Source: Marinobacter sp. NP-4(2019) (GTDB taxonomy: Bacteria > Pseudomonadota > Gammaproteobacteria > Pseudomonadales > Oleiphilaceae). Taken from it: a stretch of 24,000 nt of DNA. The notes under the pieces are model-generated. The model was given only the letters and a program-made list of their open reading frames with translations. It was not told the origin of the DNA and searched no databases. The DNA lies in NCBI RefSeq assembly GCF_003994855.1, contig NZ_CP034142.1, positions 2,703,278-2,727,277 on the forward strand. Reading direction: 5' to 3'. Position numbers and translations under genes: made by a program. Positions 14,834 to 21,507 of this stretch are shown in pieces (position 1 is the stretch's first letter; each line of letters begins with the position of its first letter).

Positions 14834-15346
14834 TTACAGTGCGCCGCCGCTACTGGAACCTCTTACGGTTCCCTTGACGGTGTTCTGTACTTCACTCCTG
14901 ACACTTTCAGACACAGACGTGCCAATTTGCTGATGGGTTTCAGCCCGAATCTCGGCATTTCGCGCCTCGTTCATGCGCTCCTGCGCCTGCTGGCGTATTT
15001 CACCGGCCTTATCGGCGGCCGCATCCGCAGAGGCAGTGGCGGTGCTGCGAGCCTTCTGGCCGGTTTCAACGCCAGCGTCTACTGCCTGATTGGCGCTCTG
15101 GCGGGCCTGGCTACTGACTGCCTCGCTGCGCTCGGAGGCGTCATCACGAGCCACTTCGCCGTCAGCATTGCCTTCCGCATTGGCCGACGCACCACCGTTG
15201 GTGGAAGCGCCATTGCGGGTGCTGGCTTCGGCGCTCATGTTGGCCTCGGCCTCCGCGCTGGCATTAGCCGCGCCGGAGCCTTCAGCAGCCAGAGCGCTGG
15301 TGGAGAGAATGGAACAGATTGCGATAGTCAGTAGATGTTTTTTCAT
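14834..15346 (-). CDS. secreted low-complexity Ala/Ser/Glu/Asn-rich protein (170 aa), unknown function
   Basis: The start is set at ATG 15346 (MKKHLLTIAICSILSTSALAAEG...), with AGGAGG 7 nt upstream and a Sec signal peptide. The track's 15505 start is an artefactual extension. Confidence 0.75.
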   Translation of the reverse strand: MKKHLLTIAICSILSTSALAAEGSGAANASAEAEANMSAEASTRNGASTNGGASANAEGNADGEVARDDASERSEAVSSQARQSANQAVDAGVETGQKARSTATASADAAADKAGEIRQQAQERMNEARNAEIRAETHQQIGTSVSESVRSEVQNTVKGTVRGSSSGGAL

Positions 15347-15392
15347 GGTTACGTCCTCCTGATTTACCCTTATCGGGTGGCTTTCATCAGGA

Positions 15393-15418
15393 GGACGGTT
15401 GGGGAGAAGGTTTATTCC
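15393..15418 (-). promoter_or_regulatory. ECF-type promoter upstream of the secreted-protein/OMP genes
   Basis: The minus strand reads GGAATAAACCTTCTCCCCAACCGTCC, i.e. GGAAT-N16-CGTCC. Its -35 region GGAATAAACC is identical to that of the sigma promoter. Confidence 0.55.
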
Positions 15419-15440
15419 ATAAAAATAGCAGAGCCCCCTA

Positions 15441-16109
15441 CTACCCCTCTCGCTGCATCTTCTCACGCCGCGCGACTTCCGCCGGGGTCGGAGGGTCCAT
15501 GGCAAAGTCGCCTGTTTTCACGGCACCGTCGCGCACATACTGCCCGATCACAATTCCGTTAGGAGAAACGCTATGGGCGGTCAGTTTGAAAGCCGCCGCC
15601 TTCGCACCGTCGTCAAACAGCTGCTTACCGCCCCCAAGCACGATCGGGAATGTGAACATATTGATTTCGTCGACAAGGTCATTCGCAAGCAGCGTCCGGA
15701 TCAGATCGGTGCTGCCTTGTGTGATCAGCGCTGGCCCGTCTTCCTGCTTCAGCCTGGCGACATCGGCCGCCGCATCATGGAGGGCCACCGAGCCCTTCCA
15801 GGTCAGATCCAGGCCCTTTCGGGTCGCAACATACTTGGTGATCGAATTGAAGGTTCTGGCGATGGAATCATCAGGCCCCTCCTCGGCATACGGCCAGTGC
15901 GCAGCGAAGATCTCATAAGTCTTCCGTCCGAGCAGCAGGTCGAAGGGTTGACTGAACATCTTGCCAACTTCTTCGCCGAACACCTCGTCCGCCAGCGGTG
16001 CAACCCAGCCACCATAGCTGAATCCGCCGGTCGGATCTTCGTGGGGCCCGCCGGGTGCCTGCATAACGCCGTCCAGTGAAACGAAAGCGCCGACAATCAC
16101 TTTCCGCAT
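15441..16109 (-). CDS. dihydrofolate reductase family protein (RibD C-terminal domain type)
   Basis: MRKVIVGAFVSLDGVMQAPGGP...LLLGRKTYEIFAAHWP... is typical of the RibD_C/YwjB-like family. The start is set at ATG 16109, with AGGAGG upstream. Confidence 0.85.
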   Translation of the reverse strand: MRKVIVGAFVSLDGVMQAPGGPHEDPTGGFSYGGWVAPLADEVFGEEVGKMFSQPFDLLLGRKTYEIFAAHWPYAEEGPDDSIARTFNSITKYVATRKGLDLTWKGSVALHDAAADVARLKQEDGPALITQGSTDLIRTLLANDLVDEINMFTFPIVLGGGKQLFDDGAKAAAFKLTAHSVSPNGIVIGQYVRDGAVKTGDFAMDPPTPAEVARREKMQREG

Positions 16110-16171
16110 GGCTTCATCCTCCTGTTTTGTCTTCTCGTATCCGGTAGTCGAACGAGGCGCCACGTAATCGA

Positions 16172-17263
16172 CTAACGTCCCGGATAAACTTCCTTGATCT
16201 CAGGATCGGGCTCCATCCCCACGGCGTTCCAGCTCGGTAGCTCGTCCACCGCTCGTAGCGCTTGTGGCAGCGGCGAGCGAACGCTTTCCTCGACCCAGCG
16301 TTTACGCTCGATGTCGCCCTGTTTCAGTGCCATCATCATTCGGCGCCGCTCGGCGTCCGGCAGGTGGTCCGGCGGAATATGGCCAAGACACGGGTTGGCG
16401 TGATTGAGGGCGACACCATTAACCAGCCCACGTTGAACCTGCAGGGAGTAGTCCAGGGCGCGCATCGGCGGCGATGCCACCGGCGGAGCTTCCGGTTCGC
16501 AATAACCCGGTGGCTCGGTCATCTGGCCAAACGGCTCGCTGCCGGCGATATTGCGGAACCAGTATTGCCGTTCGGTGGCGCTGCAACTGTTGTCCGGCAC
16601 CATCCTCGCGGCGGTGTAAGCGCCCACGCTGGTCTGGCCCTCCCTAACCTGGGCCGTGGAATGGCAACTCATGCAGGCGGACTGGGGATTGTCCACCGGA
16701 CCGTTCAGGCGGCCATGCAAGCCAACGTGACCGTCGAACGGAGCCGGTACCGCCGGGTTGATCCAGGTCTCATCGAGATCGGGGTCGCCATCGAAGGTGA
16801 CGTCCGGGTCGTTCCCCCAAGCCAGCCCCACCGGAGTCAGGTTATACCAGCGCTGTTGCGGTGTTGCTGCAGGCAGTGATTCGTCGTACACGTAAGTGGC
16901 GAACACCCAACCGGTGTCGGTGGAACGCGGGTCTTTCACCGCGATATCCATCTGGATCAGTCGTACCTCGAAGGTGGCGTTCGACGCCGAGAACGGGTCC
17001 TGAATCTGCCAGGCAGGCGCATTGGCCAACGGATCGGGGCCAACAATGGCGGCGGGATCGTACTCGGCGAACAACACCTTGACCACCAATGTGCCGTCAA
17101 TGAACTGCGACTCGCCGGCATCGGCATTGCTCGGCTCCGGGTCGTGAAACACCTGCCCGATGGTGTAGCCGCCGTGCCAGTTGTACATTCCAATACCAAA
17201 GGCCCCCACATCAGAGGACAGCCACGACTGCTCGGATGCCCGCAGCCCGCGTTCGCGGGTCAA
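16172..17263 (-). CDS. C-terminal part of a split gene: CxxCH (heme c motif)-containing protein
   Basis: Contains ACMSCHS (CxxCH). The only start is a TTG with no SD that overlaps the upstream stop. The reading frame stays open upstream to 17356 (..REPRHGLTRERGL..), which suggests a frameshifted continuation of 17260-17754. Confidence 0.6.
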   Translation of the reverse strand: MTRERGLRASEQSWLSSDVGAFGIGMYNWHGGYTIGQVFHDPEPSNADAGESQFIDGTLVVKVLFAEYDPAAIVGPDPLANAPAWQIQDPFSASNATFEVRLIQMDIAVKDPRSTDTGWVFATYVYDESLPAATPQQRWYNLTPVGLAWGNDPDVTFDGDPDLDETWINPAVPAPFDGHVGLHGRLNGPVDNPQSACMSCHSTAQVREGQTSVGAYTAARMVPDNSCSATERQYWFRNIAGSEPFGQMTEPPGYCEPEAPPVASPPMRALDYSLQVQRGLVNGVALNHANPCLGHIPPDHLPDAERRRMMMALKQGDIERKRWVEESVRSPLPQALRAVDELPSWNAVGMEPDPEIKEVYPGR

Positions 17264-17754
17264 CCCATGGCGGGGCTCGCGGGGAAGAAGCCGGAGGTCA
17301 TCATCGGTACGTGGTACCAGCGTTTCTTGCCCAGGGTGTGGTTTTGCGGCACGAAATCATGGGGCACCAGGTCTGATAGCGCGTAGTCCTTCAAAGCCTC
17401 AAGGTATGAAGCCCGTTCGGCCGGATCGGTGAAATCAAATGCCAGCCAGGGTGCACTGTCAAATGGGGACAGTGGATCCCAACCGGTAATCTCGCCGTCG
17501 TCGTTCACTACCGGCACGCCAAGGGGATACCCCTGAGCCAGGCGAAACGCCTCCACATCACCCGGTGGCGCGGCCCGCGCTATCCAGTCGGGGAACCAGC
17601 CGGAACACTGAACGGTGTAGTCATCCCCGGCGCCGCCACCTTCCCCTGTCGTATCCTGTATGGGCGGATCAAACGTGGGGCGGCAGCCGGAGACCATGAA
17701 CGCACTGACAATCGCCAGGTACAACAGTCTACGGATCAGTTGATGGTTATCCAT
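17260..17754 (-). CDS. N-terminal part of the split gene: lipoprotein
   Basis: It has a lipobox signal (LLYLAIVSAFMVSG/C) and GGAGGG 4-5 nt upstream of the ATG. The start overlaps the 3' end of the upstream oxidase gene by 19 nt. Confidence 0.7.
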   Translation of the reverse strand: MDNHQLIRRLLYLAIVSAFMVSGCRPTFDPPIQDTTGEGGGAGDDYTVQCSGWFPDWIARAAPPGDVEAFRLAQGYPLGVPVVNDDGEITGWDPLSPFDSAPWLAFDFTDPAERASYLEALKDYALSDLVPHDFVPQNHTLGKKRWYHVPMMTSGFFPASPAMG

Positions 17755-20753
17755 TGTCCCTCCGATGGCACGCGCTGATCGTCGATAATGAAAAGCAGAT
17801 AGGCCCCCGGCGGCGCGATATTGCCGTTTGGGGGGAGCTCCACCTGCAGGGCAGCACCGTCAAGGGTGAACGCGCACTCCACAATGCGCTGCGACATATT
17901 GAAACCATGGGTGACCGCCCCCGGGGCCAGCAGGTGGACCGTCACGATATCCGCCGCTTCCGGCGAATCCACGGTTATCGTCGCGCCGTGGGCGGCGCTG
18001 GCCGGTGCGCTGGCAATCGTCGGCCGTGGCCGCTCGAAATACCCCGGCAGATAACGCTCGAACACGTCCGAATTGGGATCGCCGCCAACCAGCACACTGC
18101 CGTCGGCCAACAGGATCGCGGCGGAGTGGTATCCGCGATGGTGGGTCATCACCGGCCCCAGCGTGAAACCGCTGGCTACATCGTCGGCATCGAGCAGCTC
18201 CACCGCGCCTCCCCCGGCTACTGCATTGGCACCGCCAACCACCAGCACGTGCCCATCTGGCAGCAATACGGAGTTCACCTGCTCCGCCCGCTCCAGGTTC
18301 AGATCCGGAAGGCTTTGCCAAGCCGGCATCGCCTCCGAGAGGTCGATCAGCTCGGCGGTTTTTCGAGCGGGGGCAGTATTACCACCGATGACGACCACAC
18401 GGGGTGCGTAATCCGGTGGCCGCAACGGTAACAGCACCGAGGTGCCCTTCTCTCCCCCGGTGCTCCGGTTGCCGGCAATCGTGGCATAGGTTTCCAGGCC
18501 GCCGATGGGCTCGATGGTAAAGCGGTGGGTCGGATCGTGGGGGCCGGCGATGAACAGCCGGCCGTCCGGCAGCAGATAGGTCCATGGGTAATACTGGTGG
18601 TGGTCCATCGCCGCCGGGAAATCAACCGGCGCGCTCCAGGTGCCACTGGCGGAATCCCAGATCTCCAGGGATTTCGAGGCGGAGCCGTAAATTGTGGCAA
18701 TGCGACCGTCGGCCAGGGTCAGGGTAGTGGCGTAAAACCGTGGCTCGGCGGTGGACCCGGTCTGCGACCATTGTTCCGTGGCCGGGTCGAAGACAAAGGC
18801 ATTCACATAGTTGCCGCCGGGGCCGGCAAAGCCGCCGTGTCCCAGCACGCGACCGTCGGGAATAAAGGCGTGGGCCGCCGACCACAGGTCGGACAGGTCG
18901 CTGTCCATGCCCGGCAACGCCGCCGGCTGCGGCGAGGGCTCGGCAACCGTTGGCCCCGGCGGATCATAGAGGCGGGACTGGTCAGCCCGGGTATAGCCCC
19001 AATACAGCACCTTGTTGGTATCGGGCAGCAGGCAGGCGTGCATGAAGGTGACTTCCGGATCGACCTCCAGCTCCTCCCAGGTTCCGGGGCTGAGCTTGTC
19101 GCAGTATCCCATCTCAGCCATCGGTATGGGGTTGCTATCATCGAATAGCTGAATACGCCCTTCCGCCAGCAAGGTCTCCTTCATGGATTCGGTAAGCCAC
19201 ACATCCTTGTAGGATCGCACAACCGCGATCATGCCATTCATCATGTGGTGGTGGACGTGGCAATGCACCAGGAAGTCCCCCATCAACCGCACTTTCTCGG
19301 CGTCGGGTGGGCGGTCGTCGGCGTCCTGGATTGCCGCAACCTCCTCCGGCAGGATCAGCGCCGGTGGCGCCACCGTGTCGACAGTGAACGACTCCGCCGG
19401 CCCAACGGAGCGCACATCGTGATTCTCACCGGCCAGTTCCCAGCGGATGTTGTGGGGATGGAAATTGTGCCATTCGTGGCCAAAATCGAGGTTGAACACG
19501 TACCAGCGAATCTTCTGCCCGGCACGCGCAATGATGGTGGGCGTATTGCCCACAAACCCACGGCCATTGATGCAGTGGGTGACCAGCGCCGCCCCGTCCC
19601 TCGATGTCACGGTGTGGTGCTGCATGCTCAGGTTGTTCCAGGTAACCGTGCCGCCAGGCGCGACATCAATGGAGTCCGGATAGAAGCCCATTGCCGGCGC
19701 ATCGAGGATGTTGACCGTGGCAGTGGCCGGCGCACCGGAGACGACATTCACAGTACCGGTCATTGCCGGGTGGTAGGCACAGAAATACTCGTAGCTGCCG
19801 GCATCGTCGAAGGTGTGGTCAAAGGTGCCGGCGCCGTTTTCCTCCATATCGCCGCTGTCGAATGCGGGTTTGGCCTGGTCGCTGACCATCTGGTGCAGGA
19901 AAAACGGCACGTGCAGCGTATTCCAGTCTGGTCGTGGCCAGAACCGGAGGCGCAGGTCGCGCATCAGCCATTCCCGCAAGTCCTCGTACTGGTTCTGCAG
20001 CAGCAGTTCCTGCCTCCGTGTCAAACGGGCCCGCAGGGGTGTGCGGGGGTCCCTCCTGGCCGGTTTCGCCTGCTTCTTGGCGGGCGCACACAACGGCAAC
20101 TTGAGTCCCTTGTACACCATGTCGGGGAAACGTTCCGGCAGCGGGAGCGGAATGGGCCAGCGAAACGGGCGCTTGCGAATGATGATCCCGCCAAACAACC
20201 CCAGCTTGGAGCTGCCATGGGAGGCGTGTGAGGAATGATCGTGAAACGGCCAGGCACCGATCATGTTTTCCCGCACCTGATAGATATACGTCCAGGACTT
20301 TCCCGGGCAGATCTCATCGGATCGGCGACCATCCGCCGCCTGGGTCCCCATCGGCCAGGCGCCATCGGAATCGATGCCATATTCGATACCATGGATATGA
20401 AACGAATGGGGGCGATTGTCGGCATTATGCACGTGGATGCGAACGTTATCGCCAACGTAGGCATAGAGCACGCAACCGGGCACCCGATGATTCCACACCG
20501 GTTCATTAATGTCCGCATGGACCAGTTTGCTGGTGCGAGGAATCAGGTAATCGGCATCCTGATACTCACGGAAGGTCACCGCGCGCAGTGCGCGGGCATC
20601 ACGCTCGGCATCCGGGATCACCCCCATGGGGTGCCCCATGTAGTGCATGCCGTCGCGTTTGTACTGAATGGGGGGAATGGCAAAGGGGTCCGGCTCAACC
20701 GGGCTGTAATCCTCCATTGCCTCGATACGCAGGTAGAAATCCCTGTCCGCCAT
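17736..20753 (-). CDS. fusion protein: multicopper oxidase plus cupredoxin (N-terminal about 520 aa) joined to a galactose/glyoxal-oxidase-like kelch propeller with DUF1929-type E-set tail (C-terminal about 450 aa)
   Basis: All four MCO copper motifs are present: HSFHIHG, WPFHDHS, HNFHPHN and HCHVHHHMMNGM. A type-1 site is YFCAYHPAM. Radical-copper-oxidase-like motifs are HACLLPD, PRFYATTLTLADGR, GYHSAAILLADGSVLVGG and AVTHGFNMSQR. The RBS GGAG lies 7 nt upstream of ATG 20753. Confidence 0.85.
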   Translation of the reverse strand: MADRDFYLRIEAMEDYSPVEPDPFAIPPIQYKRDGMHYMGHPMGVIPDAERDARALRAVTFREYQDADYLIPRTSKLVHADINEPVWNHRVPGCVLYAYVGDNVRIHVHNADNRPHSFHIHGIEYGIDSDGAWPMGTQAADGRRSDEICPGKSWTYIYQVRENMIGAWPFHDHSSHASHGSSKLGLFGGIIIRKRPFRWPIPLPLPERFPDMVYKGLKLPLCAPAKKQAKPARRDPRTPLRARLTRRQELLLQNQYEDLREWLMRDLRLRFWPRPDWNTLHVPFFLHQMVSDQAKPAFDSGDMEENGAGTFDHTFDDAGSYEYFCAYHPAMTGTVNVVSGAPATATVNILDAPAMGFYPDSIDVAPGGTVTWNNLSMQHHTVTSRDGAALVTHCINGRGFVGNTPTIIARAGQKIRWYVFNLDFGHEWHNFHPHNIRWELAGENHDVRSVGPAESFTVDTVAPPALILPEEVAAIQDADDRPPDAEKVRLMGDFLVHCHVHHHMMNGMIAVVRSYKDVWLTESMKETLLAEGRIQLFDDSNPIPMAEMGYCDKLSPGTWEELEVDPEVTFMHACLLPDTNKVLYWGYTRADQSRLYDPPGPTVAEPSPQPAALPGMDSDLSDLWSAAHAFIPDGRVLGHGGFAGPGGNYVNAFVFDPATEQWSQTGSTAEPRFYATTLTLADGRIATIYGSASKSLEIWDSASGTWSAPVDFPAAMDHHQYYPWTYLLPDGRLFIAGPHDPTHRFTIEPIGGLETYATIAGNRSTGGEKGTSVLLPLRPPDYAPRVVVIGGNTAPARKTAELIDLSEAMPAWQSLPDLNLERAEQVNSVLLPDGHVLVVGGANAVAGGGAVELLDADDVASGFTLGPVMTHHRGYHSAAILLADGSVLVGGDPNSDVFERYLPGYFERPRPTIASAPASAAHGATITVDSPEAADIVTVHLLAPGAVTHGFNMSQRIVECAFTLDGAALQVELPPNGNIAPPGAYLLFIIDDQRVPSEGQWITIN

Positions 20754-20803
20754 AATATGCCTCCATGCAGATGATTCGCGTCCTGGAACGTTGCCCGACA
20801 GCG

Positions 20804-20829
20804 ACGCATAGATGCGTATTTAATGCGTA
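20804..20829 (-). promoter_or_regulatory. repeat cluster upstream of the oxidase gene (candidate response-regulator box)
   Basis: The minus strand reads TACGCAT-TAAA-TACGCAT-CT-ATGCGT. Two 7-mers are in direct repeat at 11-bp periodicity, with a third inverted copy. The cluster lies about 50-75 nt upstream of the ATG. Confidence 0.4.
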
Positions 20830-20895
20830 CTTACAACAGAGTAGCCCTCCTCGAACATTCAACAAGATCGAAATGTTCTTTAAAATTCCTGCATA

Positions 20896-20952
20896 GAAGA
20901 ACGGCTTACATGCTCCTGTTACCCTTGAAAGGGCCAACATGACCCGTTTCCT
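20896..20952 (-). repeat. attC-like element E (after the DinB-family gene)
   Basis: The plus strand reads GAAGAACGGCTTACATGCTCC...CATGACCCGTTTCCT. The AACGG/CCGTT and CATG arms pair, and there is a central CCCTT-TC-AAGGG hairpin. The element begins 3 nt after the stop codon. Confidence 0.4.
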
Positions 20953-20955
20953 CAC

Positions 20956-21507
20956 CTACTTGCCCACTTGAGCCAGGGTCTCCTGAATCCGATCCAAGAG
21001 GTCGGTAACCCCGATATCCACACCCATCTGTGACAGTAAAGTAGAAACTTGCCCCCGATGGTGAGTCTGATGGTTAAAGAAATGCAGAACCAGGCTCGAA
21101 TATCGTTTATTGGCAGGAATCCCTTCGATGTTGTGGTAGCCGAGAACGAAATCCAGATCGCCTTCGGACAGCTCGGCTATCCAGTTGATAATCTGACGAT
21201 CCAACCAGATCCGCTGCTCAGACAAGCTACCAAGATCGTTAAAGAGTATCTGATCCAGCCTGGTCGGATTTTGAAGATCAGCCACTTCCCGCAACGAGTT
21301 CAGGCAGGACGGATGGGTGGCAAATCGTTTGAGCCAGATAATGTCACCAACGAGGATGTGATTCAGGGTGCCCAGGATGGAGCCGAAAAAGGCCCCCCGA
21401 TCTTTGGCCAAATCTGTTGCAGAGAGATGTCCCGCAGCCTCATAGACCTTCGAGTTCATCCACTGATTGTAGGCGGCCAGCAATTCAAAGTGATTTTTCA
21501 AGCTCAT
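20956..21507 (-). CDS. DinB-family (DinB_2/YfiT-like) protein
   Basis: 183 aa starting MSLKNHFELLAAYNQWMN..., with His-rich motifs LNHILVGDIIW and HFFNHQTHHRGQ. The start is set at ATG 21507. The track's 275-aa ORF runs back through the higA remnant. Confidence 0.85.
   Translation of the reverse strand: MSLKNHFELLAAYNQWMNSKVYEAAGHLSATDLAKDRGAFFGSILGTLNHILVGDIIWLKRFATHPSCLNSLREVADLQNPTRLDQILFNDLGSLSEQRIWLDRQIINWIAELSEGDLDFVLGYHNIEGIPANKRYSSLVLHFFNHQTHHRGQVSTLLSQMGVDIGVTDLLDRIQETLAQVGK

Follow-up and report, generated by a model that had tools for sequence, protein, structure and literature searches.

Results

Gene organization of the locus

Marinobacter sp. NP-4(2019) carries, on contig NZ_CP034142.1, a row of minus-strand genes that we analysed between positions 15441 and 20955 of a 24,000-nucleotide (nt) stretch of DNA (the window; positions refer to it unless another locus is named). 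The row begins with the gene of a 1005-residue fusion copper oxidase, for which we use the short name OX, continues with that of a heme lipoprotein, P460L, and ends with a gene of the RibD_C type (Table 1). A preliminary description of this DNA had taken the three together as one oxidative module. We favour a different reading, to which we assign a probability of about 0.62, namely that the locus holds a horizontally acquired two-gene OX-P460L operon followed by an unrelated RibD_C gene with its own leader.

The minus-strand positions of all open reading frames (ORFs) are as first described, and the spacing between the genes also agrees with the sequence. The P460L start codon (ATG, 17752-17754) precedes the OX stop codon (17736-17738), that is, the lipoprotein starts inside the last 19 nt of the oxidase gene, with GGAGGG located 5 nt upstream of the ATG. 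This is the arrangement expected of translational coupling. The same 19-nt overlap is present in L001, a Marinobacter metagenome-assembled genome, and in L132, a contig from an independent assembly that is 99.87% identical to the window over 10.3 kb, and a 4-nt ATGA overlap is found in L104 (L-numbers denote loci or contigs compared here, P-numbers homologous proteins and G-numbers other Marinobacter genomes). Further downstream, 62 nt separate the P460L stop (16172) from the RibD_C ATG (16109), which is preceded by an AGGAGG site, and no terminator is visible: a sequence scan found no terminator-like site in either intergenic gap. The sole sigma-70-like site detected in the region upstream of OX lies on the opposite strand, and an Rfam scan of positions 15000-21200 returned no match. 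L132 shows the gene order of the window, with DinB, OX, P460L and RibD_C followed by genes of an extracytoplasmic function (ECF) regulon.

Recurrence and mobility of the OX-P460L pair

The homology between the window and L001 (94% nucleotide identity) covers positions 16174-20908 only, comprising a 155-nt upstream region, OX and P460L; it ends exactly at the P460L stop codon on one side and at 20908 on the other. With the locus of Marinobacterium aestuariivivens (L077) the window shares 77% nucleotide identity, over 16345-20753 only. In that locus (L077, 10001-14566) OX and the P460L-like gene run through several overlapping frames, as would result from many indel errors or from decay of the pair, and since both are broken there we left L077 out of the tree and of fine comparisons.

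A search of 150 other Marinobacter species recovered neither OX nor P460L. The GC content of the unit is 61.7% (OX 62.3%, P460L 62.1%) and falls in the top 2.6% of windows of a genome that averages 57.3 +/- 2.8%; the neighbouring DinB gene has 50.6%. The module had been placed at the junction with the core chromosome, a position that does not fit these data: not found in any of the 150 congeneric genomes, the unit is itself accessory.

We compared the OX neighbourhoods of 80 loci from many phyla (L001-L080) and the P460L neighbourhoods of 37 metagenomic loci. P460L adjoins OX in three of the 80 OX loci, and OX adjoins P460L in one of the 37 P460L loci (L104), where it lies immediately upstream and where the two proteins are 48% and 45% identical to those of the window. 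In L023 the order is reversed, with P460L 58 nt upstream of OX. The paired loci (window, L001, L132, L077, L104 and L023) show both gene orders and belong to no fewer than two clades of OX. The pairing is recurrent but facultative, and the proteins do not need each other, because the majority of OX and of P460L members are found without their partner. Judged by sequence, OX and P460L are nevertheless a real two-gene unit.

To the right of position 20896, and for ~11 kb past the window, the DNA contains small ORFs on the minus strand together with attC-like repeats, toxin-antitoxin genes and insertion sequence (IS) elements. Both ends of the 4.7-kb block (20896-20908 and 16172-16176) lie at ...CGTT, resembling the G/TT crossover of integrons. 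The attC-like repeats, which end in GCGTTA and contain CACGGCGAC, occur in the flanks of the window and of L001 (L001 2990-3060 and 7788-7905); between P460L and RibD_C in the window there is no attC. The only integron integrase of the genome (TIGR02249, 407 bits) is at C1:4417395-4418321, 1.7 Mb away. The block may have moved as an integron gene cassette, which would carry an attC recombination site at its 3' end and have an integrase nearby.

Flanks rich in attC-like repeats, toxin-antitoxin genes and IS elements would also be expected if OX and P460L were independent accessory genes, without functional link, co-mobilised in a cassette-rich accessory region; the distribution of both families is patchy, with a tendency to horizontal transfer, and neither has a neighbour conserved across lineages. 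We consider such an origin unlikely. Both families are rare (among 400 sampled genomes of the phylum, P460L is present in 6 and OX in 0), so that two or more clades are unlikely to show the adjacency by chance; moreover, overlapping frames in two arrangements are found among the adjacent pairs, as is the reversed order, and OX and P460L share base composition.

The RibD_C neighbour

The RibD_C product (222 aa) matches Pfam PF01872 with 81 bits (cut-off 24, E 1e-22) over profile positions 1-196 of 197 and falls far under the cut-offs for true riboflavin-pathway reductases. This full-length match places it with the dihydrofolate reductase (DHFR)-fold proteins of the 'dihydrofolate reductase family', in line with the reductase fold that had been proposed for the last gene. 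Its membership in the module does not survive comparison. When the synteny of the three families was followed across genomes, OX-P460L adjacency recurred in distant lineages, but RibD_C was adjacent to OX in 0/80 OX loci and did not lie beside the pair in L001, L077, L023 or L104. Orthologues of RibD_C, with 81-84% identity, are present in eight Marinobacter species (L135-L142) that lack OX and P460L; the homology spans 15442 to 16150/16172, that is, the gene and its 62-nt leader, and the flanks differ. In six of the eight, the upstream neighbour codes for a membrane protein and a different small gene follows downstream, with an overlap. Because the orthologues occur in other contexts, without OX or P460L, and share the gene and leader only, RibD_C is an independent neighbour and not a part of the unit, and the 62 nt are probably its own promoter, operator or leader. 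Within the leader (16110-16171), GTCGAT...CGACTAC is followed by a Shine-Dalgarno sequence, and in most of the eight species a short hairpin stands just before the latter.

The arrangement in the window might still be taken to mean that OX, the heme lipoprotein and RibD_C make up one self-contained oxidative or electron-transfer pathway, since the three genes lie on the same strand, with a 19-nt overlap, a 62-nt gap and no terminator-like site between them, and keep their order in the nearly identical L132. Against this stand the distribution of RibD_C with its leader in the eight congeners beside other genes, its absence from every other paired locus (L001, L077, L023 and L104) and from all 80 OX loci, and the end of the L001 homology at the P460L stop codon. 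A self-contained electron-transfer pathway is also doubtful topologically: the RibD_C product is cytoplasmic, P460L is exported, and 0/120 OX homologues have a hydrophobic N-terminus. The chance that the three genes form one pathway is, in our view, close to negligible.

Table 1. Features of the OX-P460L locus (window positions)
Feature	Position	Strand	Basis
Putative promoter/operator, 155 nt; travels with OX and P460L; contains the repeats of the preliminary description	20754-20908	minus	Homology to L001
OX, 1005 aa	17736-20753	minus	ORF and Pfam
OX/P460L overlap, 19 nt; GGAGGG Shine-Dalgarno inside OX	17736-17754	minus	Sequence
P460L whole gene, ~527-aa lipoprotein with cytochrome-P460-like heme-c domain	16172-17754	minus	Full-length homologues; intact in L132 and L001
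P460L 5' ORF, 164 aa, signal peptide and lipobox VSGC	17260-17754	minus	ORF analysis
Frameshift site, C4 versus C5 in L132	17281-17284	minus	Frame analysis and alignment
P460L 3' ORF, 363 aa, CMSCH	16172-17263	minus	ORF analysis
RibD_C leader, 62 nt	16110-16171	minus	Conserved with RibD_C orthologues
RibD_C ORF (likely ATG at 16109; gene 15441-16109, 222 aa)	15441-16163	minus	Pfam RibD_C

The fusion copper oxidase

From N- to C-terminus, OX is composed of a multicopper oxidase (MCO) domain, a linker with an extra plastocyanin-like type 1 (T1) cupredoxin, another MCO domain, and a galactose oxidase (GO)-like part (about residues 555-1005) formed by a seven-bladed propeller and an E-set domain. 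The Pfam domains found are Cu-oxidase_3, Copper-bind, Cu-oxidase_2, Glyoxal_oxid_N/Kelch and GO-like_E_set, with Cu-oxidase_3 and Cu-oxidase_2 exceeding the Pfam cut-offs. The MCO part corresponds to cupredoxin domains 1 and 3, which bear the T1 site and the type 2/type 3 (T2/T3) cluster, and its motifs (HxH, HxH, HxxHxH and HCHxxxHxxxxM) lie at H119/H121, H171/H173, H429/H432/H434 and H497-C498-H499-H503-M508. The T1, T2 and T3 copper attributed to the oxidase in the preliminary description is supported by the presence of all these ligand motifs; in an alignment of 58 homologues, the scope of all residue conservation given here for OX, the His and Cys ligands are invariant, and M508, the axial Met of T1, is kept in at least 90%. 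A second T1 site (C325, H328 and M331) is invariant as well.

For the radical copper site, also proposed earlier, the outcome is divided. Four copper ligands are present and invariant, Y674, Y875, H876 and H949, which correspond to Tyr272, Tyr495, His496 and His581 of galactose oxidase when OX is aligned by HMMER with GlxA and with the bacterial enzyme. However, the position of the cysteine of the Tyr-Cys cofactor (Cys228) is occupied by Ser625, and W624-S625 is invariant. Two other cysteines, C551 and C149, are invariant, and either might conceivably replace the missing one. As the equivalent of His581 we also considered the H of the PTPHERY motif, and ruled it out: that H is lost in the clade of the window, and H949 is aligned and invariant. 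Together, the MCO T1 site, the trinuclear cluster, the second T1 site and the GO-like mononuclear copper give OX six predicted copper sites.

The GO-like half can be placed among known enzymes by sequence (E 1e-27 to GlxA, bacterial and fungal galactose oxidase and glyoxal oxidase, phmmer against PDB) and by fold (Foldseek E about 1e-32); over both kinds of search, the matches to GlxA and galactose oxidase range from ~1e-27 to 1e-33. For the cupredoxin domains, PDB sequence and fold both point to ceruloplasmin, factor V/VIII and two-domain laccases. Against the NCBIfam equivalog profile of GlxA (NF052501) OX scores 153 bits, with a cut-off of 800, and through its C-terminal part only. The AlphaFold2 model is confident for each domain (predicted local distance difference test, pLDDT, 88), and the arrangement of the domains is less certain (predicted template modelling score, pTM, 0.59). 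With the AA5 enzymes galactose oxidase (1GOF), bacterial 9G43/9G8H, glyoxal oxidase (9N3U) and Streptomyces GlxA (4UNM), OX shares propeller, E-set and four copper ligands; unlike them it has Ser for the Tyr-Cys cysteine, is fused to an MCO and lacks signal peptide and membrane anchor, the known enzymes being either secreted or anchored. With the two-domain laccases (SLAC, 3CG8) and ceruloplasmin it shares all four T1 and T2/T3 motifs and, with ceruloplasmin, the possession of more than one T1 site. In contrast to characterised bacterial MCOs, it lacks a twin-arginine translocation (Tat) or Sec signal and carries an extra T1 cupredoxin between its MCO domains and a GO-like oxidase after them.

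No signal peptide or hydrophobic N-terminus was found in any of 120 listed OX homologues, and the N-terminus is conserved from residue 7 on. OX is probably cytoplasmic, or else exported by an unconventional route. The OX of the window is the shorter form of the protein, 87 of the 120 listed homologues being longer than 1,080 aa; in the aligned long forms there is an additional N-terminal domain of ~110 aa, rich in beta-strands and not hydrophobic. Tat hitchhiking of OX with P460L was considered as a route and rejected, the RR of the signal peptide not being conserved; c-heme proteins are exported unfolded.

Over 1,250 homologues make up the family, spread across Acidobacteriota, Pseudomonadota (Nitrosomonas among them), Nitrospirota, Actinomycetota, Bacteroidota, Planctomycetota and Nitrososphaerota; it has members in Nitrosomonas, Nitrosopumilus, Nitrososphaera and Nitrospira. 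Its tree is strongly discordant with taxonomy, and no homologue was present in the plasmid collection. The commonest neighbours are copper-related, a heavy-metal (Cu) P-type ATPase in 9 of the 80 loci, a 1036-aa tyrosinase-VWA protein in 6 (Nitrosomonas nitrosa among them) and a conventional three-domain MCO in 5; a widely shared neighbour hinting at function was not found in these loci. The metagenomic locus L085 (2908-11012) contains, in a row, a stand-alone MCO of 681 aa, a GO-like protein of 630 aa, a tyrosinase of 299 aa and a fused OX of 1003 aa, the latter 60% identical to that of the window; signal peptides are absent from the cluster, and transposase genes lie on its flanks. A split MCO and a separate GO-like gene standing side by side in this locus support cooperation between the two halves of OX. 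Four other Marinobacter genomes (G008, G027, G069 and G143; loci L089-L092) have giant frames of 2,400-3,200 aa with a GO-like propeller and E-set, whose GO-like part is about 27% identical by tblastn to the C-terminal half of OX (32-33% in a second comparison).

The heme lipoprotein

The heme-c lipoprotein of the preliminary description is present in the window as two ORFs. Its signal peptide, lipobox (VSGC) and CMSCH motif are all there, but frame analysis puts lipobox and CMSCH in separate frames, and the heme domain is of a cytochrome-P460-like rather than a generic c-type kind. In homologues the two parts form one protein of 500-570 aa: P0121 (95% identity, 527 aa) reads through the junction of the two ORFs, P0123 is full-length too, and the gene is intact both in L132 (527 aa) and in L001. 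Four C residues at 17281-17284, against five in L132, constitute the sole indel in the 10.3-kb alignment. The missing C would be a sequencing error in the homopolymer or, if real, would have inactivated the gene very recently.

The assignment to the P460 type draws on several comparisons. Pfam Cytochrome_P460 matches 66 of 80 P460L members (E<=0.01) and essentially nothing else does, although the score is borderline for PF16694 (28.0 bits for the 363-aa ORF of the window and 24.5 bits for P0121, cut-off 27). Profile-profile alignment (hhalign) to canonical P460-family genes, taken from genomes of the same order, gave a probability of 88% and an E of 3e-6 over residues 199-293, and the best Foldseek matches are NeP460 and c'-beta. 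Searches of PDB sequences, run with one sequence, with a sub-region and with a profile built from 80 sequences, returned no P460 match. Lysine K226, in a FxDGTxxxK motif, aligns with the conserved P460 Lys and is present in 80/80 members; D270 aligns, in an alignment whose probability is only 88%, with the Glu of the canonical GLE motif and is present in 79/80; and a single CXXCH is found in 80/80. The Lys cross-links the heme (Lys70 in NeP460) and separates P460 from c'-beta, and a distal carboxylate (Glu96 in NeP460, Asp102 in McP460) is needed if hydroxylamine (NH2OH) is to be oxidised (2025 review PMC11928373, Table 2); taken together, the two residues tell P460s that oxidise NH2OH apart from inactive P460s and c'-beta (PMC11928373). 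P460L appears to have retained the Lys for cross-linking together with the distal carboxylate and CXXCH, the heme cross-link itself being a prediction, and is best described as a cytochrome-P460-like domain within a much larger protein.

This domain appears to resemble NeP460 (2JE2/2JE3/8GAR), McP460 and NeCP-beta (7S5O) in its central beta-sheet, single CXXCH, Lys and distal carboxylate. The proteins that contain it are otherwise different: P460L has ~527 residues as against about 160-200 for the cytochromes P460 and c'-beta, is lipid-anchored, has added N- and C-terminal parts and places ~50 more residues between the GWxF motif and CXXCH. Nor is it, as cytochrome P460 is, a small soluble periplasmic homodimer of ~17-20 kDa. 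Among 107 members surveyed, 84 have a hydrophobic N-terminus and 74 a lipobox. Clustering at 50% identity leaves 1,185 representatives of the family, which is found mainly in heterotrophs, and the conservation of its neighbours amounts to lineage-level synteny only.

Some long members (P0284, P0281, P0329 and P0374) are fusions to secreted nucleases, of the S1/P1 nuclease, Endonuclease I and Exo_endo_phos types. They retain CxxCH and GWxF and have signal peptides, and P0284 and P0281 also retain FxxGxxxxK. No nuclease genes adjoin the unfused P460L loci. The fusions may point to a role apart from nitrogen chemistry.

Possible links between OX and P460L

The residues that P460L keeps are those that distinguish NH2OH-oxidising P460s (PMC11928373), and OX has a spare T1 site that could be an entry point for electrons. 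The two proteins could then be a direct redox pair, an oxidoreductase for hydroxylamine (or another small reductant) and O2 in which electrons would pass from the P460L heme to the extra T1 of OX, to the MCO cluster and to O2, with OX reaching the periplasm by an unrecognised route. The translational coupling held at 45-48% identity and the presence of OX homologues in Nitrosomonas, Nitrosopumilus, Nitrososphaera and Nitrospira speak for such a pair. However, direct electron transfer between OX and P460L is doubtful because their predicted compartments differ, OX having no export signal (absent in 120/120 homologues) and P460L being an exported lipoprotein. Besides, most members of either family occur without the other, three OX-bearing Nitrosomonas genomes gave no P460L match, the homology of P460L to P460 is weak and the nuclease fusions point elsewhere. 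On balance, we find a direct redox pair quite improbable.

A coupling through peroxide has a precedent. In Streptomyces lividans, GlxA, a GO-like copper oxidase, is reportedly tied via H2O2 to DtpA, a secreted heme peroxidase of the dye-decolourising (DyP) type, both being extracytoplasmic; here, by comparison, the heme protein is P460-like and the oxidase is without export signal. By analogy, the GO-like site of OX would release H2O2, which P460L would consume or require for its Lys-heme cross-link, and the difference in compartment would not matter because H2O2 crosses the membrane. OX does have the GO/GlxA fold and its copper ligands, and the maturation of the P460 cofactor is peroxide-dependent, with peroxidase activity in cross-link-deficient P460 and in c'-beta (PMC11928373). 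Yet the presence of a fused MCO hints at water, and not H2O2, as the end product of the electron flow; the cysteine of the radical cofactor is missing in OX, so that two-electron reduction of O2 of the GO type is uncertain, and the pairing is facultative. We hold this coupling to be very unlikely.

Discussion

In the reading that we prefer, a horizontally acquired OX-P460L operon beside an unrelated RibD_C gene, a substrate of OX would be oxidised at the GO-like copper site, and the electrons would travel via the extra T1 to the MCO T1 and the trinuclear cluster, where O2 would be reduced to water. Alternatively, the MCO half may be a built-in one-electron activator that would maintain the oxidised, active state of the GO-like site. 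As for OX and P460L, the link between them would more likely be indirect than a direct transfer from heme to copper, and might consist in co-expression within one stress or substrate response or in a diffusible compound such as H2O2, NH2OH or NO.

Several points weigh against this interpretation. The operon is deduced from gene layout only. The pairing is rare, with the 3/80 OX loci and 1/37 P460L loci mentioned above; relatives of P460L with 73% and 59% identity occur unpaired, and a P460L match was absent in nine of ten OX-bearing genomes searched. P460L is frameshifted in this assembly, and the pair may be non-functional here. With no terminator found, transcription may read through into RibD_C, which would not make the latter a member of the pathway. 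Finally, the nuclease fusions of P460L are explained by neither a hydroxylamine nor a peroxide role.

A bolder proposal goes beyond the two-gene operon and has two separate parts. In the first, the pair would be an undescribed copper/heme system in which P460L oxidises hydroxylamine or a related small nitrogen compound and the six-copper OX serves as terminal oxidase or as the source of peroxide for maturation of the cofactor. In the second, the signal-less OX family (more than 1,250 sequences, ammonia-oxidising bacteria and archaea included) would represent a copper enzyme of wide distribution whose assembly takes place in the cytoplasm. We put this forward as a long shot.

The combination had been said to match no named pathway, and we can add that, in the literature searched, there is no published description of an MCO/cupredoxin/GO-like fusion, no characterised member of the OX family and no account of OX together with a heme lipoprotein. 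Beside the GlxA-DtpA couple, the nearest comparison is the ncgABC-nirK cluster of Nitrosomonas europaea, in which an MCO gene is said to form an operon with c-type cytochromes in a nitrogen-oxide context, all products being periplasmic; the MCO type and the cytochromes differ from those described here, and that cluster is not known to encode a GO-like or P460-like domain. OX and P460L are known by kind, as MCO, GO-like oxidase and P460-type heme protein, yet uncharacterised as families.

The annotation of this genome changes accordingly in three respects: the unit has two genes and not three, the heme gene contains a homopolymer frameshift, and RibD_C is an unrelated neighbour. Beyond this genome, two large families of uncharacterised metalloproteins come to light, the OX fusions and the P460-like lipoproteins of ~530 aa. 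P460 cofactors, which are rare, have been connected with the oxidation of NH2OH and the release of N2O, and the P460L family retains the two residues that define a catalytically competent P460. The occasional translational coupling of OX and P460L offers a concrete, testable hypothesis and, if OX is truly cytoplasmic, its family would run counter to the common notion that copper enzymes are kept out of the bacterial cytoplasm.

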